DNA of 64,000 nt, from assembly GCA_964441235.1 (NCBI GenBank), contig CAYTUQ010000002.1, forward strand, positions 1,705-65,704, in the 5' to 3' direction. A program made the translations under genes and the position numbers. Below the pieces are notes generated by a model. The model was not told where the DNA came from. It did no database searches and was given only the letters and a program-made list of their open reading frames with translations. This document shows, one piece after another, positions 33,400-64,000 of the stretch; within the stretch, counting starts at the first letter, position 1; every line of letters starts with the position of its first letter. This DNA is from an uncultured bacterium (GTDB lineage: Bacteria > Fidelibacterota > UBA2242).

Positions 33400-33490
33400 G
33401 TTTATAATTCGGTGAAAATTATGAACAAAAATAATTACCAAAATTGGACAAATGATGCTTATAATAATTAAATAGGACCATGAAATAGTT

Positions 33491-34216
33491 ATGGATGAAA
33501 AGAGTTGGATAAAAAATAGACCGGAGTATGAAAGACCTCGTGAAAAACTTTTGAAGTTTGGTTCTAAGAATCTTTCTAATTCGGAATTACTTGCTATCTT
33601 TCTTAGAATAGGTGTTAAAGACAAAAGTGCAATTCAACTTGCAGCAGAAATATTAGAAAAATTTGGTGGGATTAGAGGAATTTGTACTGCCAAAATAGAA
33701 GATTTACTTACAATAAAAGGATTGGGTATAGCAAAGATTGCTCAATTAAAAGCAACTTTAGAACTCGCTGAAAGGTATCTTAAAGAAGATGTTAAGCAAA
33801 AATCAATTGTAGAAAGCTCAAAGGAAGTTTTAAATTATCTTCATCATTCAATGCAAGATTTAGATCATGAATTAATGAAAGTAATCCTTTTGAATGGTCA
33901 AAATCAAATAATAAATATTGTAGATTTATTTAGAGGCTCTATAAGTTCATCAAGTGTTTATCCAAGGGAGATAATCAAATTGGCTCTTAAATATTCAGCT
34001 TTAGCAATTGTTATTGTTCATAATCATCCTTCTGGAATTTCAAAACCAAGCGAAGGTGATAAAAAACTTACAAAAGAAATTATTTTTGCATGTATTTCTA
34101 CAGGTATTAAAGTTCACGACCATATAATAATTGGCAATAAAAAGCATTATAGTTTTGCTGATGAGGGAATTATTGAAGTTTACGAAAAAGAATATGAAAA
34201 GAGGATGAAACTATGA
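33491..34216 (+). CDS. radC: RadC-like JAB/MPN domain protein
   Basis: N-terminal HhH (LLTIKGLGIAKIAQLKATLELAERY) and a JAMM motif (HNHPSG...S..D). Confidence 0.8.
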   Translation: MDEKSWIKNRPEYERPREKLLKFGSKNLSNSELLAIFLRIGVKDKSAIQLAAEILEKFGGIRGICTAKIEDLLTIKGLGIAKIAQLKATLELAERYLKEDVKQKSIVESSKEVLNYLHHSMQDLDHELMKVILLNGQNQIINIVDLFRGSISSSSVYPREIIKLALKYSALAIVIVHNHPSGISKPSEGDKKLTKEIIFACISTGIKVHDHIIIGNKKHYSFADEGIIEVYEKEYEKRMKL

Positions 34217-36096: not shown

Positions 36097-37034
36097 TGAT
36101 GGAAAAAGAAAAAATGACTTTTGAGGATTTTTGGAATCATGAAACAGAATATTTTAAAGAAACGGCAAAAGAAAGTTTTAAAAAAAATAAACAGGGAGTT
36201 GAATATTTTATAGAATATCTCGATAATTATATAGATCTATTTGGCATAAACAAGTATTACCAAAAAGATGAAATAACAAATTCTATTTCTGCTATGTTTC
36301 TCTTTTACTCCTTTAAACAATTGCGATGGGTTAATCATGAGATTCTATCAGGTGCTTATTTTGAGGCAATCAGAGATTTAAGATTTGCATTTGAAACTAT
36401 TGTTTGGGCACATTTTTTAGATGAGTGGATTAACGAAAAAACAAAAGAATACCTAAAAGTAAGTATAGGAGCAGGAATATCTTTAAAATATGAGATTTTA
36501 AAGTTAAGAGATGAGATATATGATGTCAAAGGTTATAGAAAAAAGAAAAATGAAAGAGAGAAAATAGTTAAGGAAAATGTTGGCAAATTCATAAAAAAGC
36601 ATGCCCAAGATTTTACAAACGAAGAAACGTGGAAATATAAAGAACTTTATTTTGAAATCTTGAAGAACTTGGGAGTTGGATTTACTGGAAAAAATGGATT
36701 AATTGCTAAACTTCCCTTAGAAGAGGAAGATGAAAAGAAGTTGGACAAACTTTATTCAGAATTATCAAAATATATCCATCCATCAAACAGAATAATAAAA
36801 CCGTTTTATGAAGACGATATTGGTTTAATCTTTAATTTTTGCTATAATAAAATATTATTTAATAGCTGTATGAGGTTTCTTGTAGATGTTATGGACTTAT
36901 TTTATGCCATTCTTTACGTCCATTTTGAGAAACTTAGAGAAGTGATTAAAGAAAAAATTGTAGATTTTTGTAAGGTTAATTTTAATATGGAATTTCCGAT
37001 AACTGAAAAATTAATACGGGATGACCTAGTATGA
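36096..37034 (+). CDS. hypothetical protein embedded between hsdM and hsdS
   Basis: 312 aa with no recognisable motif. Start overlaps the hsdM stop and stop overlaps the hsdS start, so it is operonic. Confidence 0.3.
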   Translation: MMEKEKMTFEDFWNHETEYFKETAKESFKKNKQGVEYFIEYLDNYIDLFGINKYYQKDEITNSISAMFLFYSFKQLRWVNHEILSGAYFEAIRDLRFAFETIVWAHFLDEWINEKTKEYLKVSIGAGISLKYEILKLRDEIYDVKGYRKKKNEREKIVKENVGKFIKKHAQDFTNEETWKYKELYFEILKNLGVGFTGKNGLIAKLPLEEEDEKKLDKLYSELSKYIHPSNRIIKPFYEDDIGLIFNFCYNKILFNSCMRFLVDVMDLFYAILYVHFEKLREVIKEKIVDFCKVNFNMEFPITEKLIRDDLV

Positions 37035-39439
37035 TAATTTCAGAAGCAAAATTTTCAGAAGCTTATACCAAACTAAGATTTGATGCTGAATATTTTAAAA
37101 CAGAATTCATTGAAACACGATATAGATTAGAAAAAATTAATGCATCCAAACTTACTTCTATTGCTGAAATATCAAAATTAAGGAGGGATCCTACAAAAGA
37201 ATCGGATAAAGAATTTATATACATTGATATAAGCAATATTGATACATCTGTTGCTGATGTCAGTACACAGAAAATAATAGGTTATAAAGCACCAACAAGA
37301 GCGAGAAAATTAGTTCAAACAGGAGATGTTATAGTATCTACTGTACGACCGAATAGAAATGCCGTCGCAATTATACCAAAAGAATTAGATAATAGCGTTT
37401 GTTCTACAGGCTTTTGTGTTTTAAAACCGACGGAAGTAAATTTGCATTATTTGTTTGTTTTCTTAAAAACAAAATATGCAATAAATCAACTAGTAAGAGA
37501 AACTATGGCTTCTATGTATCCCGCAGTTAGTGAAGATCAAATTAAAAAGATATTGGTGTTTTTACCATCTTTTGAATTCCAGTTTCACGTAGAAAAACTC
37601 GTCAAAGAAGCATTTTCAAAACGAAAACTTGCTGATGAAAAATACAAACAAGCAAAACAACTTTTAGAAAAAGAATTAGGACTTGATAAATTAAAATTAA
37701 AAGAAGAAAAAACATTTGAAGCAAAATCATCAGAACTATTTGGAAGTAGAAGATTTGATTCTGAGTACTACAAGCCGAAGTGCAAACAAATCATAAGGTT
37801 TCTTAAAAATTCTGGGTTTGAAGTAAAGAAATTAAAAGAGATTGTAAAAATTTCAAATAAGAAAATTGACCCAACAAAGGAGCCAACCAAAAGGTTTAGA
37901 TATGTTCCAATAGCAAAGATAAATTCAAATGGAGAAATTGATGAGTGGGATGAATTTAATGGTTGGCAGGCACCAAGCAGGGCAAGAATGCTTATTAAAA
38001 AAGGGGATGTTTTAGTCTCATCATTAGGTGGTTCGCTTAACAAAATAGCATTAGTTCCTGAAGAATTAAATAATTCAATTGCTACAACAGGAACCTTTGT
38101 CATCAATTCTGAAAACTTTTATAGTGAATTCTTATTTTTATTATTCAGAACAGAACTAATCAAATTGCAGTTGGAGCGGAAAACAGCAGGTGCAATAATG
38201 ACTGCTGTTCCTAAAACAACTTTTGGAAATTTACTAATTCCAATTATTCCAAAACAAAAGCAAGAAAATATTGCAAAATTAATAAACCAATCTTTTACTT
38301 TGAGAAAAGAAGCAAAACAACTTTTAGAAGAGGCAAAAGAAAAGGTGGAAAGTATGATAGAAAATCCTTTAGAAATCTCTGAAACCCAACCCGTTCTCCG
38401 TAGTCCTGATAAAATTGGGACGAAGGGTGAACCTGAGATTATTATCCCTTTTCCTATTCCTTCAAAATTAATAAGCCTTAAACCGCCTGTCAAAGTAAAA
38501 TATAAAGATTACCAAATGCTTGATGGTTCAATAAAGAAATTGGTTCAACAAATAGGAGATGGTTCAATCATTAAAAGATTTGAAAAAACACCAATACCTA
38601 AAAGTAAAATAGATGTAGTTTGTCCTCATTTTCTTGAATTAAAATGGGCAACAGGATGTCCTTATGATTGTTCCTGGTGCTATCTGAAAGGAACTTTTAG
38701 ATTCTTGCCGTATAAAGCGAAACCACATATTAAGGATTTTGATAAGATAGAAAAACATACAAAGACATTTTTGGAATATGTTCAAACTCCTGAAGTATTA
38801 AATACAGGTGAGCTGGCAGACTCACTAATGCTTGAAGTAAAGAATAAATCATTTGTTAAGTTTATTGTTCCACTTTTTGAAAACCAAAATAAGCATAAGA
38901 TTCTCTTTTTGAGTAAATCAAACAAAATAGAAAATCTTTTATTACTTAATACACATCGTCAGGTTATAGTAAGTTTTAGTCTTAATGCTATTCCTGTGGC
39001 ACAAAGATGGGAAAAGAAAGCACCTTCAGTTGAAGACCGCATAAAAGCAGCAGGGATTCTATACAAACAACGATTTGAAGTAAGGATAAGGATAGACCCA
39101 ATGATCCCTGTGGAAAACTGGGAGCAACTTTATACTGATTTAATAGACCGCATATTTAATTCGTTTATACCTGAAAGAATTACTTTAGGTTCTCTTAGAG
39201 GATTACAGAGTACTATCAATGGAACATCAGATAAGTCCTGGGTAAAATATCTATCTGAACGCTCAAACTGGGGAAGAAAAATAGATATTAATTTAAGGCT
39301 TGCTATGTACAAAACAATTATCTCTTATTTAAATGAAAAGTATAAATATAATAAGGTCGCTCTTTGCAAAGAAACTTTGGCAATTTGGGATATACTAAAT
39401 ACGAATTATAAAAATATAAAATGTAATTGTGTGTGGTAG
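37031..39439 (+). CDS. hsdS: Type I specificity subunit (two TRDs) fused to a C-terminal SPL/COG1533-like radical SAM domain
   Basis: Residues 1-~450 carry two HsdS target-recognition domains (RFDAEYF...STGFCVLKP..., RFDSEYYKP...TTGTFVI...) with conserved coiled-coil spacers. Residues ~500-802 carry CPYDCSWCY (CxxxCxxC) followed by spore-photoproduct-lyase-family landmarks (LFLSKS, SFSLNA, IRIDPMIP). It is a single continuous ORF. Confidence 0.6.
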   Translation: MIISEAKFSEAYTKLRFDAEYFKTEFIETRYRLEKINASKLTSIAEISKLRRDPTKESDKEFIYIDISNIDTSVADVSTQKIIGYKAPTRARKLVQTGDVIVSTVRPNRNAVAIIPKELDNSVCSTGFCVLKPTEVNLHYLFVFLKTKYAINQLVRETMASMYPAVSEDQIKKILVFLPSFEFQFHVEKLVKEAFSKRKLADEKYKQAKQLLEKELGLDKLKLKEEKTFEAKSSELFGSRRFDSEYYKPKCKQIIRFLKNSGFEVKKLKEIVKISNKKIDPTKEPTKRFRYVPIAKINSNGEIDEWDEFNGWQAPSRARMLIKKGDVLVSSLGGSLNKIALVPEELNNSIATTGTFVINSENFYSEFLFLLFRTELIKLQLERKTAGAIMTAVPKTTFGNLLIPIIPKQKQENIAKLINQSFTLRKEAKQLLEEAKEKVESMIENPLEISETQPVLRSPDKIGTKGEPEIIIPFPIPSKLISLKPPVKVKYKDYQMLDGSIKKLVQQIGDGSIIKRFEKTPIPKSKIDVVCPHFLELKWATGCPYDCSWCYLKGTFRFLPYKAKPHIKDFDKIEKHTKTFLEYVQTPEVLNTGELADSLMLEVKNKSFVKFIVPLFENQNKHKILFLSKSNKIENLLLLNTHRQVIVSFSLNAIPVAQRWEKKAPSVEDRIKAAGILYKQRFEVRIRIDPMIPVENWEQLYTDLIDRIFNSFIPERITLGSLRGLQSTINGTSDKSWVKYLSERSNWGRKIDINLRLAMYKTIISYLNEKYKYNKVALCKETLAIWDILNTNYKNIKCNCVW

Positions 39440-39451
39440 AAAGGAAAGATT

Positions 39452-40549
39452 ATGTCTATTAAAGAAACAATATGGAAGATTGAACTGCACACACAGGCAA
39501 AGCATGAAATACTAAAGCGGTATCTTCAAGCGTGGCTTCCAATAATGAGTACTGTTAGTGGGCGTATTTTGTATATTGATGGCTTTGCAGGTCCAGGAAA
39601 GTATTTAGACGAAAATAATCAGCCAACTATTGATGGCTCTCCACTTGTGGCTATGAATGCAGCAATAAAGCACAAGTTACCGCTAAAGGCGGAGATAGTA
39701 TTTCTTTTAATTGAAGCAGACCCTAAAAGATTTGACTATCTTAAAAATTTGCTTTCAGAAATAACTTTTGCAGATAGTATGAAATATAAAGTAGTATGTA
39801 GTAAATTTGATGAAACTCTTACATCTATTCTAAACGACTTTGATGAGCAGAAGAAACAATTAGCTCCAACTTTTGCATTCATTGACCCATTTGGATATTC
39901 CGATACACCTCTTGCAGTTGTTAAACGAATAATGGAGAGCCCAAAGTGTGAGGTCCTTATTACATTTATGTATAGTTTTATAAAAAGAGCTATTGTCAAA
40001 CTCGACCAAGAAGATCATCTAGACATTCTTTTTGGTACCCAAGAATGGAGAAAAATTCGAGATATTGGTTATCCTTCAAAGAAACGAGAATTTGCCCAGC
40101 AACTTTATAAAAAACAATTGGAAAAGGAAGCCAATATAAAATATGTGCGTTTTTTTGAGATGATTAATAAGTTCAATCAAACTGAATATTTTTTATTTTT
40201 CGGAACTAATAGTCTTGAAGGACTTAGATATATGAATTCGTCAATGTGGAAAGTTGATCCGAGTGGAACATTTCAATTTTCTGATAGAACAAATCCTAAT
40301 CAAACAGTGCTCTTTACTCTAGAGCCTAACTATAACTTACTTAAAAGATTAATTGTCAGAGAATATAAAGGTAAAACGGTCTCAGTTGAAGAAGTTGATG
40401 AATTTGTATTAGTGGCTGGTTTCACTCATTTCAAAAAGAATATTTTGGAACCTATGGAAAGAGCAAAACCTGCTCAGATAGAAGTGATTAAGAGTAATAG
40501 GAAGAGAAGATATACTTATCCACCAAGAACTATAATTAAATTTTTGTAA
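39452..40549 (+). CDS. hypothetical protein with methyltransferase-like DxFxGxG motif, possible radical-SAM partner ('TcmP-like')
   Basis: LYIDGFAGPGKY resembles SAM-MTase motif I and FAFIDPFGY resembles a degenerate motif IV. Immediately downstream of the rSAM fusion, with a 12-nt gap. Assignment to the three-Cys-motif-partner family is from memory only. Confidence 0.3.
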   Translation: MSIKETIWKIELHTQAKHEILKRYLQAWLPIMSTVSGRILYIDGFAGPGKYLDENNQPTIDGSPLVAMNAAIKHKLPLKAEIVFLLIEADPKRFDYLKNLLSEITFADSMKYKVVCSKFDETLTSILNDFDEQKKQLAPTFAFIDPFGYSDTPLAVVKRIMESPKCEVLITFMYSFIKRAIVKLDQEDHLDILFGTQEWRKIRDIGYPSKKREFAQQLYKKQLEKEANIKYVRFFEMINKFNQTEYFLFFGTNSLEGLRYMNSSMWKVDPSGTFQFSDRTNPNQTVLFTLEPNYNLLKRLIVREYKGKTVSVEEVDEFVLVAGFTHFKKNILEPMERAKPAQIEVIKSNRKRRYTYPPRTIIKFL

Positions 40550-40643
40550 AAGAATTTAAAACATATTTTGATACAAAAATTAAATTTAATATCAGGTCAG
40601 TTTTAAAGTGAAATGCTAAATAAAAATTAAGGTGAGGAATAGG

Positions 40644-40922
40644 ATGAAGAAAAATCAGAAAACTGGCTACCAATATGAAAAATCTCAAGCAAAAAAACAC
40701 CGAGGTAAACATCTTGGTGGCCCAGGAAAACCGGATTATCAAAGAGGTAAAATTAAGGGTGAAGTAAAAGACTGGAAACATCCCGTACATAGCGGAGTAA
40801 TTAAAAAAGCCATAAAAAATGGTGTAAAAGAAGTTGTAAGTAAAAGTGGTTTCACAAAACCAGCTATACAATTGGCTAAAAAGAAAAATATAAAATTTAT
40901 AAGACGAGGAAAAAAAGTTTAG
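40644..40922 (+). CDS. small basic protein with PD-(D/E)xK-like motif (Mrr-cat-like restriction endonuclease fold?)
   Basis: GGPGKPDYQRGKIKGEVKDWKH fits D-x(9)-E-x-K. Very Lys/Arg-rich. RBS GGTGAGG precedes ATG 40644. Confidence 0.25.
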   Translation: MKKNQKTGYQYEKSQAKKHRGKHLGGPGKPDYQRGKIKGEVKDWKHPVHSGVIKKAIKNGVKEVVSKSGFTKPAIQLAKKKNIKFIRRGKKV

Positions 40923-41164
40923 AAAAAAATATAATTCTCCTATTCAGTCATTATAAATAAGATAAAAAATTTCTTATTTATAATGCAAATTTATTAGAAG
41001 CAATTGTTACTAAAAATCTTATTATTATGAAAAAAACATAGACATTTAGAGATTTGCCGATATAAGAGCAATAAATAGCATAAATGCAAAAGAAAAGCAA
41101 AATAGCTTTTTGAAGAAGCAAAAAGAAAAATTGAGAAGATGATTTTAAGATCATCTACAAGAAA

Positions 41165-41524
41165 ATGACTTTATTTATAGAGAACAAAATGAATAGAGAT
41201 AAAAATATCAGAAAAATAATTTCAAGAATGGTAGAGAAAATCAAAACTGAATATCAACCAGAAAGGATAGTTCTCTTTGGTTCTTATTCTTGGGGAAAGC
41301 CAACAAGGGATAGTGATGTAGATTTACTTATTATTAAAAAGACAAATGAAAGACATTTAGAGAGAGCAATTAGGGTTAGAGAAATTGTTGATAAAGAAAA
41401 CCGAATGGTTCCACTAGATATTGTGGTATATACTCCACAAGAGCTCAAACAGAGATTGAAAGCAAGAGATTGTTTTATAAAAACAATATTAACAAAAGGA
41501 GATGTAGTTTATGAACAAGAATGA
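41165..41524 (+). CDS. nucleotidyltransferase (MntA-like antitoxin, Pol-beta superfamily)
   Basis: LFGSYSWGKPTRDSDVDLLII is the GS...D.D motif. Overlaps the downstream HEPN gene by 14 nt. Confidence 0.7.
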   Translation: MTLFIENKMNRDKNIRKIISRMVEKIKTEYQPERIVLFGSYSWGKPTRDSDVDLLIIKKTNERHLERAIRVREIVDKENRMVPLDIVVYTPQELKQRLKARDCFIKTILTKGDVVYEQE

Positions 41525-41894
41525 AGCATTTAGATGGTTCAAACGAGCTCAAAAAGATATTGAAGATGCAGAATTCCTCTTGAAAGAAAGCCGAACTTTA
41601 GAAAATGTAGCACTCCTTATTCAACAAGCAATTGAAAAATATCTCAAAGGATTCATAATATATCATGATTGGGAATTGGAGAAAATCCATGATTTGATAA
41701 CGCTTATTAACTATGCGAGTAAAATTGACAAATCCTTTGAGAAGTTTGTTCCTTCTCTCAGAATTATCACTAATTTCTATTTTGAAAGCCGCTATCCTAT
41801 TACCTATGAACCAGATTATACAAAAGAAGAAATAAGAGAATCTCTTAAAGAAGCAAAGAAACTTATTGCTCTAATTAAAGAAAAAGTAAAATAA
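41511..41894 (+). CDS. HEPN domain protein (HepT-like toxin)
   Basis: HEPN helical fold with ...ESRYP...Y... signature. Paired with the MNT gene. Confidence 0.6.
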   Translation: MNKNEAFRWFKRAQKDIEDAEFLLKESRTLENVALLIQQAIEKYLKGFIIYHDWELEKIHDLITLINYASKIDKSFEKFVPSLRIITNFYFESRYPITYEPDYTKEEIRESLKEAKKLIALIKEKVK

Positions 41895-42013
41895 TGCTTT
41901 GATTACTTGTTCAATCCCCTGAAGCAACAAGAAGCAAAGCAACTCTTAGAAGAAGCAAAAAGAAAAGTTGAGAAGATAATGGATAGAGAAAGTGATAAAA
42001 ACAGGTAGGAAAA

Positions 42014-43051
42014 ATGTTTAAACCCAAATTTACATACACAAATAAAATTGTAAGGTTGCTTACCAGAATATCTGCAGCGAGAGAGATAATTCTTAATTCG
42101 CCTTTGATCCCGGGGTGGAATGTTACATTAAGGCAGGAAGCAATAATCCACAGTGCTCATTCGTCCACGCGTATTGAGGGAAATAGATTATCATTGGAAC
42201 AAGTAAGCGAATTATCTCTTGGAAGAGAAGTAATGGCGACTCGAAGAGATAAACAGGAAGTTTTGAACTATCTGAATGTGCTAAAAAATATTGATAAGCT
42301 GATAAAAGGAAATTCTATAAGTGAGAAAGATATCTTAAATATTCACCGTATGGTAACAGAAGACACATTAGACAATTCTAATGATTGTGGGGTTTATCGT
42401 AACCGTTATGTTGTGGTTGGAAATAGATTTACAGGGGAGATTTTCTTTAAGCCACCGCAAAATGAGGATGTTCCCGGGTTAATAGAAGATTTGATTGAAT
42501 GGATAAACTCTGAGGAATCAAAATCACTCGAGCCTGTTATTGAAGCGGGTATTGAGCATTATGAATTTGTCAGAATTCATCCTTTTGTTGATGGTAATGG
42601 GAGAACTGCAAGAGTTCTGGCAACTTTGATTCTCTACATGCGAGATTTCGACACAAAACAATTTTTTTGCCTTGATGATTATTACGATTCTGATAGACAA
42701 GCATACTATTTAGCATTACAAAGTGTTAAACAAGACACATTAGACCTGACAAACTGGTTGGAATATTTTGTCGAGGGAGTAAGTGTAAGCACTGAGGCTG
42801 TCAAAGAAAGAGTGATAAGGTTAAGTAGTGAGAGACTGAGAAGATCAAAAGGCGGGCAAATAGCTTTAACCGAAAGACAGATAAGAATTGTGGAATTTAT
42901 TAATAAAAATGGTAAAATAACTAATAGAGATGTACGGGGAATGTTTAAACTTTCGGATGAAGGTGCATTGAGAGAGATTAAAAAACTAATGGTGTTGAAA
43001 GTTATTCAAAGCCAGGGTAAAGGGAGAGGGTTGCATTATGTCCTTAAATAA
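42014..43051 (+). CDS. fic: Fic/DOC family protein with Fic_N and C-terminal wHTH
   Basis: HPFVDGNGRTARV is the Fic motif HPFx[DE]GNGR. N-terminal ...HSSTRIEGN... is a Fic_N motif. Confidence 0.8.
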   Translation: MFKPKFTYTNKIVRLLTRISAAREIILNSPLIPGWNVTLRQEAIIHSAHSSTRIEGNRLSLEQVSELSLGREVMATRRDKQEVLNYLNVLKNIDKLIKGNSISEKDILNIHRMVTEDTLDNSNDCGVYRNRYVVVGNRFTGEIFFKPPQNEDVPGLIEDLIEWINSEESKSLEPVIEAGIEHYEFVRIHPFVDGNGRTARVLATLILYMRDFDTKQFFCLDDYYDSDRQAYYLALQSVKQDTLDLTNWLEYFVEGVSVSTEAVKERVIRLSSERLRRSKGGQIALTERQIRIVEFINKNGKITNRDVRGMFKLSDEGALREIKKLMVLKVIQSQGKGRGLHYVLK

Positions 43052-54643: not shown

Positions 54644-55465
54644 ATGTGGTACGAATCACTAAAATTTGAGAATCCGAAAACCGTAGAAGAAGCATTAAAC
54701 TGTCTGGAAACTGATGGTGCAGAAATCATTGCCGGGGGTACGGATGAACTCATTCAGATAAGAGAAAAGAAAAAATGTATAAAAAAATTAGTCAATATTG
54801 GAGATATAAAATCTCTTAAAAAGATAAAGAAAAAAGATAATACTCTAATTATTGGAGCATGTGTAACATATTCGGAGTTTCTTGAACTTGCTTCTGAAAA
54901 TTTGCCTCCATTGACAGATGCCGTAAAGCAAATTGCATCTCCCTCGATAAGAAATATTGCTACTTTTGGAGGAAATATTGTGAACGCTTCCCCTGCAGGT
55001 GATACTTTACCTGTTTTGTATGCTTTTAATGCGGAATTGGTTCTGGAGTCTTTGCAGGGCAAGAGAGTTGTAAAGATAAGCGATTTTATTGTCGGCCCAG
55101 GCAAAACAATACTGAATAATATAGAACTTCTAACCGAAATTCGGGTAAATATTCCATCCTTCACTTGTTACTATCGAAAATTCGGTCCACGTAAAGCATT
55201 AGCACTTTCGAAGGTTTCTTTTTGCGGAGTTCACCTGACTGATTACGATGAAATCCGATTGGCGTACGGCTCGGTGGGGCCTACTGTCATAAGGGCTTAT
55301 GAAGCAGAGGAATTATATAAAAAAGGTCAAAAAGACAAAATCCCAAAGTTAATAAATAAATTAGTTCAGCCAATAAATGACCAGCGCTCTACTGCGGAAT
55401 ATCGGAGATATCTGTGCGTGGAAATGACGAGGGAGTTTTTAAAAAAGTGTGAAAATTTGTCTTAA
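54644..55465 (+). CDS. FAD-binding subunit (CO dehydrogenase flavoprotein-like) of molybdo-hydroxylase
   Basis: FAD_binding_5-type motifs (AGGTDEL, ...FGGNIVNASPAGD...). Lacks the CO_deh_flav_C extension. Confidence 0.75.
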   Translation: MWYESLKFENPKTVEEALNCLETDGAEIIAGGTDELIQIREKKKCIKKLVNIGDIKSLKKIKKKDNTLIIGACVTYSEFLELASENLPPLTDAVKQIASPSIRNIATFGGNIVNASPAGDTLPVLYAFNAELVLESLQGKRVVKISDFIVGPGKTILNNIELLTEIRVNIPSFTCYYRKFGPRKALALSKVSFCGVHLTDYDEIRLAYGSVGPTVIRAYEAEELYKKGQKDKIPKLINKLVQPINDQRSTAEYRRYLCVEMTREFLKKCENLS

Positions 55466-55716
55466 ATTTTCTATTGATTGTTTCATTTTATTTGGTTACA
55501 CTAACTAATAGTATAAGTGATAAAGAGGAGAAATGAGATTTTATTACTTTAAATTTATAAATCAGAAAGATTTTGTAGATTATCCTAAATTTTCTTCAAT
55601 AATATCTAAATATGTCGAATATAGTAGAAGTCTGTATTAGGTATATGTTGTATTTATAATTTTTCAGGATTCTTTCGTGAGTAATGTTGGATTTTTAGAA
55701 ATTTATAATCGTTAAT

Positions 55717-56388
55717 ATGGAAAATAAAATGAATTTTGATGATCTTTATTTAAATAGAGTGATTTTGGAATTTAGATATGATGGAGGATTTCTATATTGG
55801 GACAAATGTGGAGAAACAATTTTAGATATTCAGAGTAATTTTCCTGAGTGGAATTGGGAAGGAATTTCAACTGAATTAGCAAGGTTGAAAAACCATACAA
55901 GAAATATGGAACTTGTGTTTAATTATAAAAATATACGCTTCATTCAAAATGAAGTCGAGAATCTGAACCAGTTCAAAGAAGCAGCAAGTAAGATTACACC
56001 AATAATTGTCAAAAGCCTTGAGATAAACAAATTCAAGCGAATAGGTAACAGATATCAGTATGTTTTTCCTCTGGAGAATCCTGAGCAGGGCAAGAAAATC
56101 ATAAGAGAGAGTTCCTTGATTAAAATACCTGAGGGAAAACTGGCCTTGTTTGGAGAGAATTCCATTAAAACTAATTTTATTGTCCACATTGAAAACGAAA
56201 ATTATCGTTACAGGATTGAACTTGTAGGCATCGAGCGAGTTGAGGTGCCAAAGAATATTAAGATTGATGAGCGGTTTAACCCCAAATATGGACTGCGTGT
56301 TGATGTAGATATTGCTACTATTAATAAAGTTAATGCTTTAGATTTTGATTGCAGTAGCTTTATTCAATCAAGCAAGAAGTTCCTGTAA
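55717..56388 (+). CDS. hypothetical protein (paralogous in architecture to 58883..59581; TIGR04255-like?)
   Basis: The N-terminal ...LNRVILEFRYD... and central ...FKRIGNRYQYVFPLE... parallel ...PVIEAVFEIRFP... and ...LNRTGLRYINHIPIE... in the second copy. Confidence 0.3.
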   Translation: MENKMNFDDLYLNRVILEFRYDGGFLYWDKCGETILDIQSNFPEWNWEGISTELARLKNHTRNMELVFNYKNIRFIQNEVENLNQFKEAASKITPIIVKSLEINKFKRIGNRYQYVFPLENPEQGKKIIRESSLIKIPEGKLALFGENSIKTNFIVHIENENYRYRIELVGIERVEVPKNIKIDERFNPKYGLRVDVDIATINKVNALDFDCSSFIQSSKKFL

Positions 56389-56418
56389 AATAATTTAATT
56401 AAATTTATCTAAGAATCA

Positions 56419-57087
56419 GTGATAAAGGAGGTAGTTCTTGTGAATAACACAACCACTGAGACAAGAATTGATGAGAGAGGTGAAGGAATCGCCAAATATG
56501 TTCTCTCAAGAGGAATGACTCAGGTTGAAACTGTAGGCACGTTCCCAAAAGAGCAATTTGCACCGTTCTATTTGCCAACAGAGGAAGAAGAAACTCATAA
56601 GGAATTAGAAGAAACAGATATGACTTTATCAACATCTCCTACAGGTGAAATTGAAAGAGAAATTATACCCACTATAAAAAGGCTAGTTGAAATCATTGAA
56701 TCTGCAATTAGTTTGCTTGATGAGGTATTGGAAGTTTATGATGATGAGATTGAAAGGATAAACACGTTTTCACTCTTTGAAGAAGAAATTAAATCTCTGT
56801 GGGAGTTACGGGAAGAGGCAAACAAGAACTTTGTAGATGTTCTCGTTCTTTTAGAAGTAGCAGCTAAAAATTCACATTATAAAAATTATCAGAAACATCA
56901 GTACCAATCTATAAAAATGGTTTTAGAAAAAATTAAGAGTATCTATATCACACCCCAGAACGCAAGAGAATGTAGAAGATTATTAATGGACAATGGGATT
57001 GACCTTTTTGCTCCTATCAGAAACTGGGAGAATTATACAGTTGAAATAAAGAAAAATAGTATCCTCTCAATAAAGCATGGTAAATAA
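56419..57087 (+). CDS. hypothetical acidic protein (partner of 55717 gene)
   Basis: Glu-rich, no recognisable motif. Separated from the 55717 gene by 30 nt. Confidence 0.25.
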   Translation: MIKEVVLVNNTTTETRIDERGEGIAKYVLSRGMTQVETVGTFPKEQFAPFYLPTEEEETHKELEETDMTLSTSPTGEIEREIIPTIKRLVEIIESAISLLDEVLEVYDDEIERINTFSLFEEEIKSLWELREEANKNFVDVLVLLEVAAKNSHYKNYQKHQYQSIKMVLEKIKSIYITPQNARECRRLLMDNGIDLFAPIRNWENYTVEIKKNSILSIKHGK

Positions 57088-57326
57088 ATTCTAAATTCTA
57101 ATATCTAAACTCTAAACAATTTTAAAATTCAAATGTTCAAATGCTCAAAATTCGGCAGATGCTGGACCGATGATTAAATGGATTCCCGTCGATACTTTTG
57201 GTCATTTTGATTTTGGGTTTTTAATTTGTTTAGTATTTCGGATTTCGTACTTCGGATTTTACCTTGTTGGAAATTTACTAATATCAAAGAAACTTACCAT
57301 AAGATATTGAGCGGATACGAAAAATA

Positions 57327-58019
57327 TTGAAACAAAATAGAAAGTTATTTTTAGAAACCACTATCCAGATAGATCGGTTCTCTGCTGACCTAGATAAAAA
57401 GGAAAGAATAGATAAGATAATTTCCCAGTTTAGCCAGATTCTAAGTTCTACTTACGTGAAGATGGAATTCAGAAGAAGGTTTATCCAGGATTTAGTTTAC
57501 CTTTACAATGAAGCCATTTGGGGTGCTGAAACTTTTGCCGATGTCTATGCTAGAATTGACAAACTACATTCTGATTTCCATAAAAGGAAAATTAAAGGGA
57601 TAGTTGCCAGTTTTTACAGATTTTTTTCAGATACCAAAGATGAAGAAATTTCAGGAACATTAGGTAAGATAATTTTAGAAAAAGTAAGACCGTATTTTAA
57701 ACAAATTATATTAGCTGCCTGGGAAAGTTTTGATTTTGGGATCAATACAATACTAAATGAGATTAATTGCTATCATGGATTGAGAGGTCCAGTTCAAAAA
57801 GGCGGGAAGTTTGATAATAGGATGAGCAAGTGTAAAAAAGCAGATATAAGATGTAAGATTCAGGAATTCTTCAATAGAAATATGGAAACTTTCAGAAAAA
57901 TATATGACAAATTTTCTCAAATGGACTGTTTGGATAGTGAACAACAAAAGATGAAGAAATTCTTGAAAAATATAATTCGCTTGAAGGGCTTGCAAATCAG
58001 CCACTTGAAAATTTATTGA
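57327..58019 (+). CDS. hypothetical protein
   Basis: ORF only. Confidence 0.25.
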   Translation: MKQNRKLFLETTIQIDRFSADLDKKERIDKIISQFSQILSSTYVKMEFRRRFIQDLVYLYNEAIWGAETFADVYARIDKLHSDFHKRKIKGIVASFYRFFSDTKDEEISGTLGKIILEKVRPYFKQIILAAWESFDFGINTILNEINCYHGLRGPVQKGGKFDNRMSKCKKADIRCKIQEFFNRNMETFRKIYDKFSQMDCLDSEQQKMKKFLKNIIRLKGLQISHLKIY

Positions 58020-58107
58020 AAATTAAAGGCATATCCGACGTGAAGATAATACGAATAGCTGCAGCTTTTGAAATAGCACTGAGACTGATAGAAAGAAAGA
58101 AGAAATA
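57941..58107 (+). pseudogene. RadC N-terminal (HhH) remnant
   Basis: The frame reads ...DEEILEKYNSLEGLANQPLENLLKIKGISDVKIIRIAAAFEIALRLIERKKK*, matching the RadC N-terminal 'LL..FGSL.GL..A..EEL..IKGIG.AKA.QL.A..ELA.R'. The JAB domain is absent. Confidence 0.4.
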
Positions 58108-58130
58108 ATTTGTCTAATAAGAAAACCAGG

Positions 58131-58536
58131 CTAACTGAAAGAGCAACAAGTTATTTTAAAAGGGATTATTACTGAGAGTGGAACATATTATTATGAAACA
58201 AATAATATAAATGAGGCATTATATTTACTATCTGTTCTAAATTCGGTAATAGTAGATAAACTTGTCAAACCACTTCAAGTGCGTGGGCTATGGGGATCCC
58301 GTCATTTTCATAAAAAAGTTCTCAAGCTGCCCATTCCGCAATTTGGTGTAAATAATACGCATCATCATAGACTAGCAGAAATTGGTAAAGAATGTAGTAA
58401 AAAAGTAGAAAAATGGTTAAAATGTGGTGGAGTGGGAAAGATTAGAAGTATTGGGAAGTTGCGGAGTATGGTGAGGGAAATGTTGAGGGGAGAGTTGGGG
58501 GAGATTGATGGGGTGGTGGAAGGGATTCTTAGATAA
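58131..58536 (+). pseudogene. remnant of a DNA methyltransferase / type IIG enzyme C-terminal TaqI_C-like target-recognition domain
   Basis: ...YYYETNNINEALYLLSVLNSVIVDKLVKPLQVRGLWGSRHFHKKVLKLPIPQF... is paralogous to 60309..60740. It fits the 'YYLLaiLNS.l..fy.k.....G......i..lPIP' pattern and is N-terminally truncated by a stop. Confidence 0.4.
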
Positions 58537-58882
58537 AAAAAAGCACAAAGGATAAAACAGAAGTTATTTGCGAAATATTATAACTCGTTTCATAATGAAT
58601 TATCAAATTGATTTTTTAATAAAGATTTAGACGAGGGAGTTTTTAAATGACTTATGCAAAATTTCTTGTTGATTTATTTATTTCATTTACTTAAAATAAT
58701 TATAGGAAAGATGTACAAGAGAAGAAATATTGCCTTATCATTTAAATCTGTTGTATTATTGGGTATTAATTTTACGATTTTTGATTACTTTTTGAACAAT
58801 TGAGTGAGGAAAGTAGTCAAGAGATTGGGAATAGAATATTAAACTTTTAATCAGAATTGGTTAAAGTAAATCTGAGGACAAA

Positions 58883-59581
58883 ATGAATACTAAATATATT
58901 GATCCTCCTGTTATAGAGGCTGTTTTCGAAATTAGATTTCCTGCAGAATTATCTATAGAATCTCAAAGAGATAAGTACTATGAAAAGATTAGAGAATATT
59001 TCCCCGATATTTCCGTTCCTAAGGTTGAAAGTCCAGAGCCTTATCCTCTAAAACCTTATCGGTTTGAAACTTCTGATAAATTAAAGATGATCCAATTTTC
59101 AATCAATAGATTTTCTTTTCATACTAAGAAGTATAATACATTTAATGAATTCAATACGGAAGTGATTAATTATATTGAATCTTTTTGCGAGCTGTATAGA
59201 ATATCAAAACTCAATAGAACAGGATTAAGATATATCAATCACATTCCTATAGAACGAGAAAATGGAGTTTTGCAAATATCTAAATATTTGAAATTTGGAT
59301 ATATTTTACCTGATATTATTCCAAGCAACTTAGAACTGTTTCAAACGGTCTTATTGTCACGAATTGAAGAGGGGAAATTAAGGATATTAATTGCTTCTCA
59401 AAATGCAATAGGTACCGGGGATGGAGAGATTATGGTGCTTGACTTTGATTTCTTTTTTGAGGGTGATCTTTCTGTAGATTTGTTAAAGAATTATTTACAA
59501 AATTCTCATATACATACTAAGAAAGTTTTTGAAAGTTTGATTAGTAAAGAATACAGAAGTATTCCAGAGAAAGGGGATTAA
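58883..59581 (+). CDS. hypothetical protein (second copy of 55717-type family; TIGR04255-like?)
   Basis: See 55717. Its stop abuts the next gene's ATG. Confidence 0.3.
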   Translation: MNTKYIDPPVIEAVFEIRFPAELSIESQRDKYYEKIREYFPDISVPKVESPEPYPLKPYRFETSDKLKMIQFSINRFSFHTKKYNTFNEFNTEVINYIESFCELYRISKLNRTGLRYINHIPIERENGVLQISKYLKFGYILPDIIPSNLELFQTVLLSRIEEGKLRILIASQNAIGTGDGEIMVLDFDFFFEGDLSVDLLKNYLQNSHIHTKKVFESLISKEYRSIPEKGD

Positions 59582-60061
59582 ATGGATGTTTCTGGTGAAA
59601 CAGTTGAAAAGTTAACTTATCACAATATGTATGATTATCCGGGTGGACAGATTGAGACTTACAAGGGATGGACAGGACCCGGCAAATTTATTGCTCAGGG
59701 AGGTTCCTATGTACCTTTAGCCTATGTTCCGATAAGGCGTGAAGTTCTAACTATGCTTTTATCAGTTGATTCCCAGGTACAAGGCATTATTGAAAAAATA
59801 AATGGCTTGGAAAATAGAGTTTCTACGTTGGAAAAAGGAATTTCATCGGTAGGGATGATTGAGATTTCTGAATCAAATCCAATTGAAGGTAATATTAGGA
59901 TAACAAAAACGGAGGCGAGGAAAAAGATATTAAAACACTTTCAGCTAAGAGGTGAGTTAGATTACTTTGACATAGTAGAAGATCTTGGTCTAGACTTGAA
60001 ATTTGTTGTTGAAATTTGTGAAGAACTAGAAAATGAGAAAGAAATAAAAGCAGTAAAATAA
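59582..60061 (+). CDS. hypothetical protein (partner of 58883 gene)
   Basis: ORF only. Translationally coupled to the upstream gene. Confidence 0.25.
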   Translation: MDVSGETVEKLTYHNMYDYPGGQIETYKGWTGPGKFIAQGGSYVPLAYVPIRREVLTMLLSVDSQVQGIIEKINGLENRVSTLEKGISSVGMIEISESNPIEGNIRITKTEARKKILKHFQLRGELDYFDIVEDLGLDLKFVVEICEELENEKEIKAVK

Positions 60062-60308
60062 TGCCAATATATTTCAAAGAGGGGGATGCAATTCAGGGTG
60101 AAAAATTAGTTTTCACTTGTAGGAAATTTAGTATCTCTAAGAAACCTGTAAAACGAACATCAGCTCATAGAGCACAGAGTGGGAAATTAGATAACGCATA
60201 TTGTGTAATAAATAAGCGTTTTAGGCACATACCAGAGAAATGAAGGTAAAAAAGTATCAATTATATGCTATTTTAAAATAAAATCATCATGTAATTTACA
60301 AATATCGA

Positions 60309-60740
60309 GTGATTTGTAATACTTCGGGGACATTTCTTACTGCTGCAACTGTTGAAAATGAACCTATAGCATTTGAGATTAACGGTCAGAAAATTATATC
60401 AAATGGATTCGTAGCTGATTATGTAACTTACTATTTCGAAACATCAAATTTTAAAGAAGCATACTATCTTAGTTCAATTCTGAACTCTCCTATCCTGAAC
60501 ATTCTGATCAAGCCTATGCAAGCACGGGGCTTATGGGGTCCTCGGGATATTCATAAAAAAGTTCTCGAGTTGCCCATTCCGCAGTTTGATGCGGAAAACT
60601 CCCAACATCGGCAATTGACTGAATTGGGCCAAGCCTGCTCTGCCAAAGTCAGGCAGTGGGTCAACAGCGGCGGTCTCGGCAATATTCGCAGCATCGGTAC
60701 GCTGCTCACACGATGGAAACGTTATACGAAACCGGTATAA
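60309..60740 (+). pseudogene. fragment: TaqI_C-like C-terminal target-recognition domain of an N6-MTase / type IIG enzyme, no catalytic domain
   Basis: ...EAYYLSSILNSPILNILIKPMQARGLWGPRDIHKKVLELPIPQFDAENSQHRQLTELGQ... No NPPY/FxGxG-bearing ORF lies upstream. Confidence 0.4.
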
Positions 60741-61312
60741 TTTAATTTTGGGTTATTTTTAAAGTAAGGAAGTGTATTATGGTTGAACAATTAAGTAAGG
60801 AAATTCTTGCTTTTGAAAGTGATCATATATGGGTACATGAGAATTTTGATGATTTGCTTAAAGATTATCAAGACCGGTGGATTGACAAATTTCAAGTTTC
60901 AATCATAGCCTCAGCCTTTGTAGTCAATGGGACAGGCAAGTTTCAAGTATCACGTTTTACGTATTAATTTATATGAAAGTAACCACGAATTACACTAATT
61001 ACACTAATTGAAACCGTTCACCCCGTTAGATACTTACTATTTTAAACAATGAATATCTATCAGGGGTTGTTATCTTACGGGGTTCATGGTTTACAGTTTA
61101 TGGTTAACGGTCTCTTAATCCCACCCCGATTTGTATAAGTTAGTTTTGAACATTAGACATTGAGATTTGTAATTTGTTTGAAATTTGATCCGCCAGCTGG
61201 TGGATTAATATTTGCAATTTGCAATTTGATATTTATTTTGTCTCAGCCTTTTTAAATTTCACGCTTCGTTGTGGTGAAAAATCATGGGTGTTATTAACAA
61301 TATGTTGCTAAT

Positions 61313-62281
61313 ATGTACTTTGAAGCTGAATTAAACGAAGCCATTCGGTTGAAACAGAAGAAGGAATATCACCGGGCATGGGAACTGTTTGATGAGATTT
61401 CAAAGTCCAATCCCCGGTCGGCTTATTTCTGGTCCAATTATGCCCATTTGGCATTCCTGATGAACCGATATCAGAAAGCAAAGGAGTTTTCGGAAACGGC
61501 TTTGAGCATTGACCCCCTGTCCAGATTTGTGAGGTCGTTATATTCATCTATCCTGCTTCACACTAATGATACAGCGTCTTCTCTGGAATTAATACAGGAA
61601 CTCATCGAAGAAAAAATGGAAGTTCCTCTTTTGAAAAAATTGGTGAAAGCCGGTGAATCTCTGGGAATTCTCAACGATCTTGAGCCGTATTTCAATGATT
61701 GGATTCTACGATTTCACAGTGATAGAGAATTTGTTTCAACAGCGGCTGAGTATTACCATAAAATTGGTAAGACAGAGAAGACAATTGAACTTTATCAACG
61801 ACTGGTATCGGAAGAAAAATCAAACGATTTTATTTATGAACGTTTGATAGCACTTAAGACACTGGGCAAGTCAAGTCAGGAAAAAATCCGCGAACTGGAA
61901 ATAATACTGAAGCTTCCATCTCAGGAGAGGAATATTCACCTACTTGGTCTGTTGGCACGAGAGTACAAGAAAAGCAAGGAGTGGGGAAAGGCAGAACAAA
62001 CATATCGCAAGATACTTTCCATTAATCCTGATGATTTGTTTCAAAAGAAACAGATGGGATTTCTCTACGCCCGGAGTGGCAATCTGGAACAGGCTGTTGA
62101 AATCTTGAAAGATTGTTTATTTAAAGACCCAGACGACCATTTTGTCCGTAGTTCCCTGCTCTCAGCTTTTAAAAAGATGAACAGTAAGGAAAAAGCTCTT
62201 CAATTCATTGATCAGTTGCTCCTCCATTATCCTGAGAAGAAGAGTTATCTGGGTATTCGGAAAAGAGTTGAGAAGTGGTAA
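61313..62281 (+). CDS. tetratricopeptide-repeat protein
   Basis: Multiple 34-aa TPR-like repeats (W..LG/A..Y...G....A...Y..AL..DP). Confidence 0.6.
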   Translation: MYFEAELNEAIRLKQKKEYHRAWELFDEISKSNPRSAYFWSNYAHLAFLMNRYQKAKEFSETALSIDPLSRFVRSLYSSILLHTNDTASSLELIQELIEEKMEVPLLKKLVKAGESLGILNDLEPYFNDWILRFHSDREFVSTAAEYYHKIGKTEKTIELYQRLVSEEKSNDFIYERLIALKTLGKSSQEKIRELEIILKLPSQERNIHLLGLLAREYKKSKEWGKAEQTYRKILSINPDDLFQKKQMGFLYARSGNLEQAVEILKDCLFKDPDDHFVRSSLLSAFKKMNSKEKALQFIDQLLLHYPEKKSYLGIRKRVEKW

Positions 62282-62351
62282 TTGATAATTGGTGAGTGGT
62301 GTTTACTTAAATGTAAAAATTCAGTAAACTACGTCTGACTTAAAAAAAGAT

Positions 62352-62588
62352 TAAAACGCAGAGGCGCAGAGAACGCAGGGAGAAAAAGAAATATTGTAAA
62401 TAGATAAGATGTCGAAAATAGTATCATTAATTAGACGCTAAGGAAAGTTGAAAGATTATGAACATATATTTTAAACAGAGATTGTGAAATGAATAGGAAA
62501 ATTAACATAACTAATCATAAAAATTCTGCGTCTAAAGAATATTATATATCATTTAAATCTCTGCGTTCTCTGCGCCTCTGCGTTTATA
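62352..62588. repeat. ~240-bp element bounded by a perfect 25-nt inverted repeat (AAACGCAGAGGCGCAGAGAACGCAG)
   Basis: 62356-62380 equals the reverse complement of 62561-62585. The core is AT-rich. It lies immediately upstream of the brxC-like gene. Confidence 0.7.
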
Positions 62589-62640
62589 AATTTGGTTCTT
62601 TTTTTGTTCTGGTTTGTCCAAGTTAGGTGCACAACACTAT

Positions 62641-64000
62641 GAATAAACATGACCTAAAAATAGCTGATCTCATCACCGTTCCACCAGTGGAGACGGTAAT
62701 TCAACTTGAAACGGCGGACAGCAGAGATTTAGATCTCAGCCGGGGACTCCTCACCTCATTCGTACTCACTGATGAAATCGAAAATGCCCTTGCTCAACTT
62801 TTTACGCACATTCTGGAAAAGAAGGGTGCAGGGGCATTCCTGAAAGGGAATTACGGCTCCGGTAAATCTCATTTTCTGGCTGTCGTCTCATTGTTGTTGG
62901 AATCAAACCAGTGCTGGCAGTTTATCACTCACCCTCTACTCAAACAGTTTTCTGACATTCAGAAGCAACAGACTTTAATCGTAAAAATTGCTCTACATAA
63001 CTATTCAGCCGGAGAACCTCTGGAAGCTATTATTCTGGAAGAAACAGAAAAGGCGCTTCAAGACCGAACTGGTAAACCCATACTTCTCCGCAGTAAGGCT
63101 TTGCTGATTGAGCATTTCAACCGATATATCCTTCCACAGCATTCAGAATTCTTAAAATCCGCTGACCACTCCAGAGAGAGTTGGAAACGTTTTTGTAAAA
63201 CTGATCTGTCCCAAGCAGTGAAAAAGGTCACTGCCTTCATCCAATCCCATGGTATTCCTCTAAAAGCGCAATTCGATCGCCGTCAATCCCTTAGAACACT
63301 CCTATCATTTTTGAAGAACGAGCAATTTGCGGGGATATTCTTCGCCGTAGATGAACTATCGGAATTCCTGAAATCCAAAAGCAATTCATCCCTCCTCTCT
63401 GAAGACCTTCGCTTTTTACAGTTTCTTGGGGAAGCATGCAAACAGAACCCTTTCTATCTGGTAGCTACCCTCCAAGAAAATATTGAACAAACGGGGTATG
63501 TGGAAGATGACCTGGTATACCGGATCAAGGACCGTTTCCCCTTAAGATTTAGCCTGTCTGCACACCACGTCAACCAGTTGATTTCCAAACGTCTTGTACA
63601 AAAGAAAGCAGGTTCGGATAAACCCATCCAGGTTGTGTACGACCGTTTCCGGTCATCTTTTCCAAAACTTGAAGTGGGACCAAAGACATTTACCGAAATA
63701 TATCCGGTTCATCCGGATACGGTTACTATGCTGGAAGGTCTGACACCTATCTTCTCCCAACACCGAGGAGTGGTGGACTTCATCTATCACCAGTTGACAG
63801 GTGATGAAAACAGGCAATGGGATGGAATGCTTTCACTTGGTGCCGATTGCCTGATGACTCCCGACACCATCTTTGACCATTTCCGCGAGCGAATCAAAGA
63901 GCACCCGGATTTAGAAGCCTATTCGGAAGTTGTATTCAAAACTATAGAGCGTGAAATCCCTGCTTTGTTTGAATCAGAGAAGGATCAACATATTGCCCTT
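62641..64000 (+). CDS. brxC: BrxC/PglY-like P-loop ATPase (DUF499-type), 3'-partial at window end
   Basis: Walker A GNYGSGKSHFL, Walker B FFAVDELSEF and a YPVHPDTVTMLE...FSQHRGVVDFI motif resembling the DUF499 'YPFHP...FQrTRG' motif. No stop before 64000. GC is visibly higher than the rest of the window. Confidence 0.5.

Follow-up and report, generated by a model that had tools for sequence, protein, structure and literature searches.

A BrxC-PglZ fusion with a tetratricopeptide repeat partner: a probable BREX-related module in an uncultured Fidelibacterota bacterium

The window analysed here is a stretch of 64,000 nt from contig CAYTUQ010000002.1 (assembly GCA_964441235.1, positions 1,705 to 65,704) of an uncultured bacterium of the Fidelibacterota lineage UBA2242, and the gene under study begins near its end, at position 62639. 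The complete gene encodes one polypeptide in which a BrxC-like ATPase is joined to a C-terminal PglZ domain (BrxC::PglZ), an architecture that is established almost beyond doubt. Together with the adjacent gene for a tetratricopeptide repeat (TPR) protein, it constitutes a two-gene module found again in distant uncultured bacteria, and a RecQ-family helicase is encoded by a third gene in about 40% of relatives. The module is probably a methyltransferase-less relative of the bacteriophage exclusion (BREX) systems, derived from the BREX core and directed against phages or other mobile DNA. A sequence-only reading of the window had predicted a BREX-type system at this position; since the BREX component PglZ is present but the locus lacks the defining methyltransferase, the module is described here as BREX-related only.

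Extent and domain architecture of the fusion gene

The reading frame opens with an ATG at 62639 on the plus strand and is still open at 64000, so that 454 codons lie inside the window (62639..64000), both Walker motifs among them, as had been noticed for the partial open reading frame (ORF) at the window end. To extend the sequence, the complete TPR protein encoded upstream (61313-62281) was looked up by exact match, which led to public contigs; five of these were compared with the window and proved identical to it from 61020 to 64000, with 0 mismatches over 2981 nt. Look-ups of the full protein then yielded public contigs reaching up to 10 kb past the fusion gene. In these contigs the gene has 1748 codons and a stop at window-equivalent 67885, the window thus holding its 5' quarter and the PglZ domain lying outside, and the 1748-aa ORF is annotated as BrxC-PglY_N plus PglZ. 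The fusion-gene sequence is identical in at least 20 contigs, which come from several sequencing runs.

The remaining genes of a BREX/Pgl operon had been expected past the window, and extension of the contig had been proposed as a way of finding pglX, pglZ and brxL. Of the three, only PglZ was recovered, as the C-terminal domain into which the same ORF runs on, and no pglX, brxL, brxA or brxB follows it. None of these four genes was found among the ORFs of the 5.6 kb upstream within the window, or in about 0.3 kb upstream and 10 kb downstream in the public contigs, although the negative result for BrxA and BrxB comes from Pfam, PADLOC and NCBIfam profiles alone, which cryptic fused or divergent versions could escape.

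The N-terminal ~1400 residues are firmly assigned, on profile matches and conserved motifs, to a divergent P-loop ATPase of the BrxC/PglY (DUF6079) family, which has itself been placed in the ORC/Cdc6-type AAA+ clade. The best Pfam match is DUF6079 (PF19557, BrxC-PglY_N), with 134.2 bits for the part inside the window and 157.3 bits for the whole protein (gathering score 23). PADLOC ranks its BrxC models first (1.8e-32 to 2e-38) with SspC models lower, and the N-terminal family profile matches the solved BrxC structures 9zn5_A (2.4e-19) and 9zdx_C (1.8e-17). The earlier designation of the gene as brxC-like is borne out by all of these comparisons. Without the family profile, the single protein reaches just 24.6 bits against solved BrxC, and the NCBI cut-offs are not attained either for BrxC (NF033441, 83.5 bits versus 400) or for PglY (NF047891, 22.7 versus 1700). 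Other ATPase models (BrxC_BrxD, AAA_16, KAP_NTPase and NACHT) all remained under their Pfam cut-offs and covered the P-loop region only. KAP NTPase, which had been named as the family that would speak against BrxC, scored 16.7 and 15.0 bits, below its gathering score of 20.

Three motifs were judged in an alignment with 22 homologues. The Walker A motif GNYGSGKS (residues 70-77; 62846..62869, plus strand) has invariant G70, G73, G75, K76 and S77. In the Walker B region IFFAVDELSEF (residues 233-243; 63335..63367, plus strand), which aligns with that of solved BrxC (9zn5_A), D238, E239, L240, S241 and E242 are invariant. The YPVHP…FSQHRG motif that is characteristic of the BrxC/DUF6079 clade is found as YPVHPDTVTMLEGLTPIFSQHRG at residues 355-377 (63701..63769, plus strand), with P356, H358, P359, F372, S373, R376 and G377 invariant. 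This motif had been reported from the sequence alone, correctly, and had been called DUF499-like, which does not hold: no DUF499 match was obtained in Pfam, whether with the window part (E<=1) or with the full-length protein (E<=0.1), and the family is DUF6079. In a survey of BREX (bioRxiv 2025; NAR 2026), the top profile of canonical BrxC is likewise DUF6079 and not DUF499.

A PglZ domain occupies residues ~1570-1748 of the fusion protein. These last ~180 residues are confidently predicted to form a PorX-like PglZ phosphodiesterase domain of the alkaline-phosphatase superfamily, complete in its metal-binding and nucleophile residues. The Pfam PglZ model (PF08665, gathering score 25) gives 25.6 bits with the whole protein and 32 bits with its last 340 residues, and with a C-terminal profile of 42 sequences, 7pv7, the PglZ domain of PorX, is matched at 3.5e-10. 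All of its motifs are aligned, namely D..R.D, LPTxT (which holds the nucleophile threonine of PorX), D…H, DHG and HGG; they read FIVDAMRWD, SPTNTE, VDTLLH, TSDHGF and AHGG in this protein, and the residues D, D, D, H, D, H, G and H of the PglZ-like C-terminus do not vary among the 42 sequences. The last 340 residues were modelled with AlphaFold from a 9-sequence alignment; the model has a predicted local distance difference test (pLDDT) score of 63.9, and its 13 best matches in the PDB are PorX chains and the PglZ of an Acinetobacter BREX complex (E 4e-5 to 2e-4).

A cysteine cluster PTPCRRKADRQITATPICECG lies at residues ~1150-1170 of the fusion protein in L011 (one of the identical public contigs, L006-L014), in a predicted coiled-coil region outside the window. 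It is kept in the closest relative, L015, as CNR…CECG, and recalls a zinc hook at the apex of a coiled coil.

Recurrence of the module and its partner genes

The partner gene, on the plus strand at 61313..62281, encodes a protein of 322 aa that matches many Pfam TPR families above their cut-offs. Its association with the fusion gene was followed in related loci, which were gathered by a metagenome scan with an alignment of N-terminal homologues; ORFs were called by a simple script of our own and then clustered. The 80 related loci are the best 80 of 355 confirmed matches to two peptide patterns. A single fused ORF of 1650-1890 aa, with a BrxC-like N-terminus and a PglZ-like C-terminus, was present in 41 distinct complete loci. 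Where at least 1.1 kb of upstream DNA was available in the fusion group, the main gene of 52 of 62 loci was directly preceded, on its own strand, by a TPR gene of ~320-350 aa, and a RecQ-family helicase gene was also present in 16 of the 38 loci with at least 3.6 kb upstream. The relatives' RecQ proteins carry the Pfam domains DEAD, Helicase_C, RecQ_Zn_bind, RQC and HRDC, and TPR and RecQ are fused to each other in L088 and L091.

Apart from TPR and RecQ, gene clusters were common to 6 of 85 loci at most. When 136 flanking ORFs from 53 loci were assigned to Pfam families, no family appeared in more than 3 ORFs, and methyltransferases, Lon, BrxA/B and PAPS (3'-phosphoadenosine 5'-phosphosulfate) reductase were not among the 25 commonest families of this set. 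The closest relative, L015, has the gene order RecQ - 80 aa - TPR - main; its TPR protein is 64% identical to the one studied here, and its main protein is 63% identical, without gaps, over 1743 residues.

When clustered at 50% identity, the fusion is carried by at least 102 clusters. In an exhaustive HMMER search, 1.84 billion cluster representatives yielded 261 relatives at E<=1e-30, and among the best 150, the C-terminal PglZ profile was found in 102 of 144 new representatives, including all 89 that are 1590-1900 aa long. By the names of database hits, relatives belong to Poribacteria, Deltaproteobacteria/Thermodesulfobacteriota, Dormibacteraeota, Actinomycetota, Binatia and Myxococcaceae, and the only label that the databases give to the proteins is 'DUF6079 family protein'. 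For the window itself, Marinimicrobia is the probable origin, as this name is borne by proteins that share a 90% cluster with its ornithine carbamoyltransferase.

Several loci among the relatives depart from this pattern. A sister clade of BrxC-like proteins of ~1330-1390 aa (L001, L018, L019, L021, L023, L024, L029, L030, L039 and L055) has neither PglZ nor a TPR partner and no conserved neighbour, some of its members being situated among ATP-synthase or other core genes. A separate small PglZ beside a 'split' BrxC was considered for L001-L005 and rejected, as L003-L005 are frameshifted fusions, L002 is disrupted by IS21 and L001 is without PglZ. In L002 (3980-6732 and 12558-14737) an IS21-family element breaks the fusion gene, and the C-terminal half, including PglZ, is inverted ~3-6 kb upstream of the start.

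Inverted-repeat element between the two genes

In the genome studied here, the TPR gene and the ATPase gene are separated by a 357-nt spacer that contains a 232-bp element (62354..62585, no strand assigned) resembling a miniature inverted-repeat transposable element (MITE). An element of 240 bp with perfect 25-nt terminal inverted repeats had been reported from the sequence; the repeats are as described (62354-62378 and 62561-62585), and the length is corrected to 232 bp. The full repeat arms (62354-62381 and 62558-62585) are 28 nt long and 96% complementary, the first 25 nt being perfect, and no comparable match arose in 100 shuffles. The corresponding spacer measures 75 nt in L015; in other relatives, whose genes often overlap, it mostly lies between -56 and +30 nt, and homology with L015 ends with the end of the TPR gene and returns at the start of the main gene. 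Because the junctions of the relatives are short or overlapping and the L015 homology breaks in this way, the best reading is that the element has inserted between genes that are otherwise coupled.

As single-stranded DNA, the element would fold into a long hairpin (-48.6 kcal/mol, z = -8.9). Its sole ORF is 45 aa long, and nothing credible is encoded, no transposase included. A search of the element and spacer against Rfam gave no credible match, and a scan of the spacer for promoters and terminators found no more than expected by chance. A second copy of the element (AAACGCAGAGGCGCAGAGAACGCAG) was found neither in the 64-kb window nor in the fetched non-identical loci or viral contigs, and the flanks, TTA and ATA, form no clean target-site duplication. 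For these two reasons, 'MITE-like' is used as a description and not as demonstrated membership.

An insertion that parts two genes tightly coupled in relatives could also mean that the module is a decaying remnant, uncoupled and no longer functional. Some neighbours in the island are indeed fragmentary (the type IIG C-termini and the PDC-S01 C-terminal piece described below), and some relatives are broken by IS21 or frameshifts. Decay is nevertheless extremely improbable here, as neither ORF (322 and 1748 codons) is broken, no catalytic residue is missing, the sequence does not vary among the 20 or more contigs from several sequencing runs, and the alignment to the 63%-identical L015 protein is free of gaps over its 1743 residues.

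Base composition and genomic neighbourhood

The GC content of 62641-64000 is 0.445, the top value among 627 sliding windows of 1360 nt (mean 0.347, sd 0.031), so the markedly raised GC noticed in the sequence-only reading is confirmed by windowed measurement. The background of ~33% given there was measured as 0.348, and the 18-mer ggtgcaggggcattcctg, quoted as a run seen throughout, occurs once, at 62825. Of the proposed horizontal acquisition it can be said that the atypical GC and the position in a variable island are compatible with it. GC at third codon positions (GC3) separates three groups, the TPR and fusion genes (0.42), the housekeeping and host genes (0.29-0.35) and the Pbe genes located downstream (0.18-0.26); the TPR and fusion genes therefore look co-acquired, and the Pbe module would be a separate arrival.

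Downstream of the fusion gene, the order is a DUF7718/DUF5647 pair, PbeA, a 62-aa ORF, a DndD-like PbeC, a dnd_assoc_4 protein and a 384-aa ORF, past which lie the C-terminal fragment of a PDC-S01/DUF4143 ATPase and then DNA-alkylation repair and PALP genes. The DUF7718 (104 aa) and DUF5647 (91 aa) genes (L011 7242-7828, window-equivalent 68261-68847) overlap by 4 nt in a toxin-antitoxin-like layout, and the DUF7718 ORF is uncalled in some otherwise identical contigs. The following genes make up an apparently orphan PbeABCD-like restriction module (L011 8040-13949, window-equivalent 69059-74968), and no dndACDE modification genes were present in the stretch seen around it. PbeA (786 bits in PADLOC, 452 bits with TIGR04095) is the sole nearby helicase and is part of this module. 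The 384-aa protein after dnd_assoc_4 gives a faint radical-SAM signal.

This neighbourhood raises the question whether TPR and BrxC::PglZ are one half of a composite phosphorothioation-linked system, with the Pbe genes as the other half and BREX type 4 as the analogue. PbeA, the DndD-like PbeC and dnd_assoc_4 are located only 1.2 kb downstream on the same strand, BrxC is described in the literature as a homologue of SspC, and BREX type 4 makes phosphorothioate. However, the GC3 values (0.42 versus 0.18-0.26) point to separate origins, the DUF7718/DUF5647 pair stands between the modules, and Pbe-like genes adjoin the module only in this genome's own contigs. Neither PAPS reductase nor DndC or DndACDE was detected in the stretch examined around the fusion gene, and a composite system is accordingly judged highly improbable.

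Upstream of the TPR gene are C-terminal fragments of type IIG restriction-modification genes and TIGR04255-type cassettes. The region 55400-61020 consists of two tandem cassettes, each ending in a diverged copy of a type IIG C-terminal fragment (58279-58536 and 60309-60740; 51% aa identity), with a TIGR04255-family gene at 58883-59581 in the second; the body of a type IIG gene is absent from 55400-61020. The fragments were considered as remnants of PglX and rejected, as they match only the C-termini of REase_MTase_IIG, at 24-26 bits. An exact 18-mer, GACGAGGGAGTTTTTAAA, occurs at 55426-55443, in the 3' end of a xanthine-dehydrogenase FAD-subunit ORF, and again 3.2 kb downstream at 58630-58647, and the pair may represent a duplicated insertion target at the end of that gene. 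Among the public short-read contigs listed with the TPR and fusion genes, 8 of 9 loci begin exactly at 61020, 293 nt upstream of the TPR gene, and this shared start suggests a strain-variable or repeated junction there.

One more gene of the window bears on the possibility that the locus belongs to a canonical BREX system (type 1-6) whose remaining components (pglX, brxL or a helicase, brxA/B) are encoded elsewhere and act in trans. BrxC and PglZ, the two most conserved BREX proteins, are both represented in the fusion, the Pgl system of Streptomyces is described in the literature as split over two loci, and a methyltransferase gene does lie 26 kb upstream, at 34213-36096. As a trans-acting PglX it was rejected: the only methyltransferase of the window, it matches MTase_I and MTase_II models and not PglX, and it belongs with its own specificity subunit in a type I/MADS-like cluster. 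The flanks already described (5.6 kb upstream and 10 kb downstream) hold no pglX, brxL, brxA or brxB, no such gene is recurrent in the 85 related loci or the 136 flanking ORFs, and the scores fall far under the NCBI cut-offs for BrxC and PglY. A canonical system completed in trans is thus very unlikely.

The methyltransferase gene is part of a second defence island (32021-43051) of low GC (0.29-0.32). The other genes of this island are AbiEi/AbiEii (32021-33399), a gene (37031-39439) whose 802-aa product is double specificity-like and has matches among type I and MADS mad2/mad5 models, a PDC-M30A/TcmP-like gene (39452-40549), an MNT/HEPN-like pair (41165-41894) and SoFic (42014-43051).

Comparison with known systems

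Compared with BREX type 1 (BrxA, BrxB, BrxC, PglX, PglZ, BrxL), the module shares a BrxC-family ATPase with Walker A/B and YPxHP…QxRG motifs and a PglZ domain of the alkaline-phosphatase type, and its covalent fusion mirrors the physical association of BrxC with PglZ in 9zn5. It differs in being without PglX, BrxL, BrxA and BrxB, whereas BrxA-like and BrxB-like components are said to be universal in BREX (PMC12839542). BrxC and PglZ form one polypeptide here and are accompanied by TPR with or without RecQ; a stand-alone BREX BrxC has ~1200-1300 residues and no enzymatic C-terminal domain, in contrast to 1748 residues with PglZ. The PglZ part is a minimal core of ~180 aa that lacks the long N- and C-terminal regions of BREX PglZ. 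As to the helicase or Lon component of BREX, there is no BrxL or BrxH here, and the RecQ of the relatives is not of the BrxH type.

BREX type 4 (BrxP, BrxC, PglZ, BrxL), which is phosphorothioation-based, also combines BrxC and PglZ without an N6-adenine methyltransferase, and a Pbe module adjoins the genes studied here. Unlike type 4, the module has no PAPS-reductase/DUF4007 BrxP and no BrxL, and Pbe differs in composition and is not conserved beside the family. In the BREX-related (BR) systems (Rakesh & Krishnan, NAR 2026, PMC12839542; type 3 as summarised in PMC13326643), the ATPase is of the DUF499 type, and a PglX-like methyltransferase is retained together with a homologue of BrxB; BR type 3 is thereby set apart from the present protein, which is of the DUF6079 type, lacks methyltransferase and BrxB and has PglZ fused to it. 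A BREX-related system centred on HerA/FtsK (PMC12839542) and composed of PglZ, DUF6079, STAND, DUF4007, HerA, GNAT and TGT likewise combines a DUF6079-type ATPase and a reduced PglZ outside canonical BREX and without PglX. That system has seven separate components and no TPR or RecQ, however, and its PglZ keeps an inactive Swi2/Snf2 domain. None of its partners was found around the module here or in the census of the relatives' flanking ORFs. Outside defence, the type IX secretion response regulator PorX is the best sequence and fold match for the C-terminal domain and has the same catalytic motifs; PorX differs in its N-terminal receiver domain and its role in secretion signalling, the domain being placed here on a 1400-aa BrxC-like ATPase.

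TPR and RecQ are unmentioned in the bioRxiv and NAR versions of the BREX survey. The term 'BrxC-PglZ' was not found in the literature searched, where DUF6079 turned up in just eight papers; this literature covered few subscription journals, so an earlier description elsewhere is possible. In the BREX surveys consulted, the combination of BrxC::PglZ with TPR is undescribed, and it is a stripped-down relative of BREX, not a standard operon.

Possible function of the module

BrxC has been reported as an oligomerising AAA+ scaffold that binds DNA, BREX PglZ as a metal-dependent nuclease and the PglZ of PorX as a phosphodiesterase acting on cyclic and linear oligonucleotides, and a solved complex of BrxC-BrxB with PglZ exists (9zn5). 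It is plausible that the ATPase part of the fusion would oligomerise and load on DNA as BrxC does, as an ATP-driven DNA-loading ring, and that the tethered PglZ domain would be the effector, either a metal-dependent nuclease or a phosphodiesterase. As the module has no modification enzyme, discrimination between self and non-self must come from elsewhere, and the TPR protein is the obvious candidate for a sensor or regulator because its gene is adjacent and TPR is a protein-binding fold. It would bind proteins and replace methylation-based discrimination, and RecQ, where present (sometimes fused to TPR), would unwind the target DNA.

These proposals differ in strength. A defence role for the module has somewhat better than even chances. 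A stronger version, in which TPR and BrxC::PglZ, with or without RecQ, are an autonomous and previously undescribed BREX-derived immune system that has dispensed with DNA modification and relies on TPR (and RecQ) for discrimination, is possible but short of probable. The specific roles given to TPR and RecQ are conjecture and rather doubtful.

Other points, too, weigh against a BREX-related defence module. Its defence function is deduced from sequence, and the flanking genes in related loci are a housekeeping mix with few defence or toxin-antitoxin genes, so that enrichment in defence islands is not shown across the family. The Pfam PglZ match is marginal in single sequences, reaching E<=0.01 in just 12 of 42 members, and the AlphaFold model of this domain is moderate in confidence, for which reason it is taken as supporting evidence only, with low template modelling (TM) scores of 0.34-0.41. 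Similarity of the TPR proteins is generic, so the case for partnership rests mainly on gene position. The 80 related loci sample the closest clade and not all BrxC, with ORFs from the simple script mentioned above. Neither RecQ nor a RecQ remnant was found in the 64-kb window, and RecQ is also missing from the downstream 10 kb, so the system of this genome may not be the same as the three-gene form.

Some of this evidence would suit a non-immune function, either in RecQ-linked DNA metabolism or repair or in a PorX-like hydrolysis of signalling oligonucleotides, with TPR as the scaffold. The RecQ partner has a full housekeeping-type architecture, the PglZ domain is nearer to that of the response regulator PorX than to BREX PglZ (3.5e-10 versus 0.16), many flanks in related loci are housekeeping genes (for instance tRNA synthetase, MFS and PmbA/TldD), and the PglZ-less relatives of ~1350 aa occur among ATP synthase and other core genes. 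On the other hand, the distribution of the module is patchy and its neighbours vary, and in this genome it has atypical GC and belongs to an island of defence genes that varies between strains. Some relatives have IS21, integrase and HEPN/MNT genes beside them, and all characterised BrxC relatives named in the literature consulted are members of defence systems. A non-immune role is considered unlikely, and a BREX-related module directed against mobile DNA remains the favoured explanation.

Implications

How BREX restricts phage is still unsettled, and the literature points to PglZ as the nuclease effector and BrxC as an oligomeric scaffold. BREX systems of six genes are hard to dissect, and the fused family would serve as a minimal model of their restriction half. 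The family would also exemplify the evolution of a modification-based system into a modification-free one. The fusion occurs in several phyla of mostly uncultured bacteria. For annotation, the lesson is that a 'brxC-like' match must not be read as the presence of a BREX operon. If the stronger version given above, an autonomous immune system that has dispensed with DNA modification, is true, BREX would have its minimal restriction engine in the BrxC-PglZ pair, which would provide a two-gene handle on how phage DNA is stopped.

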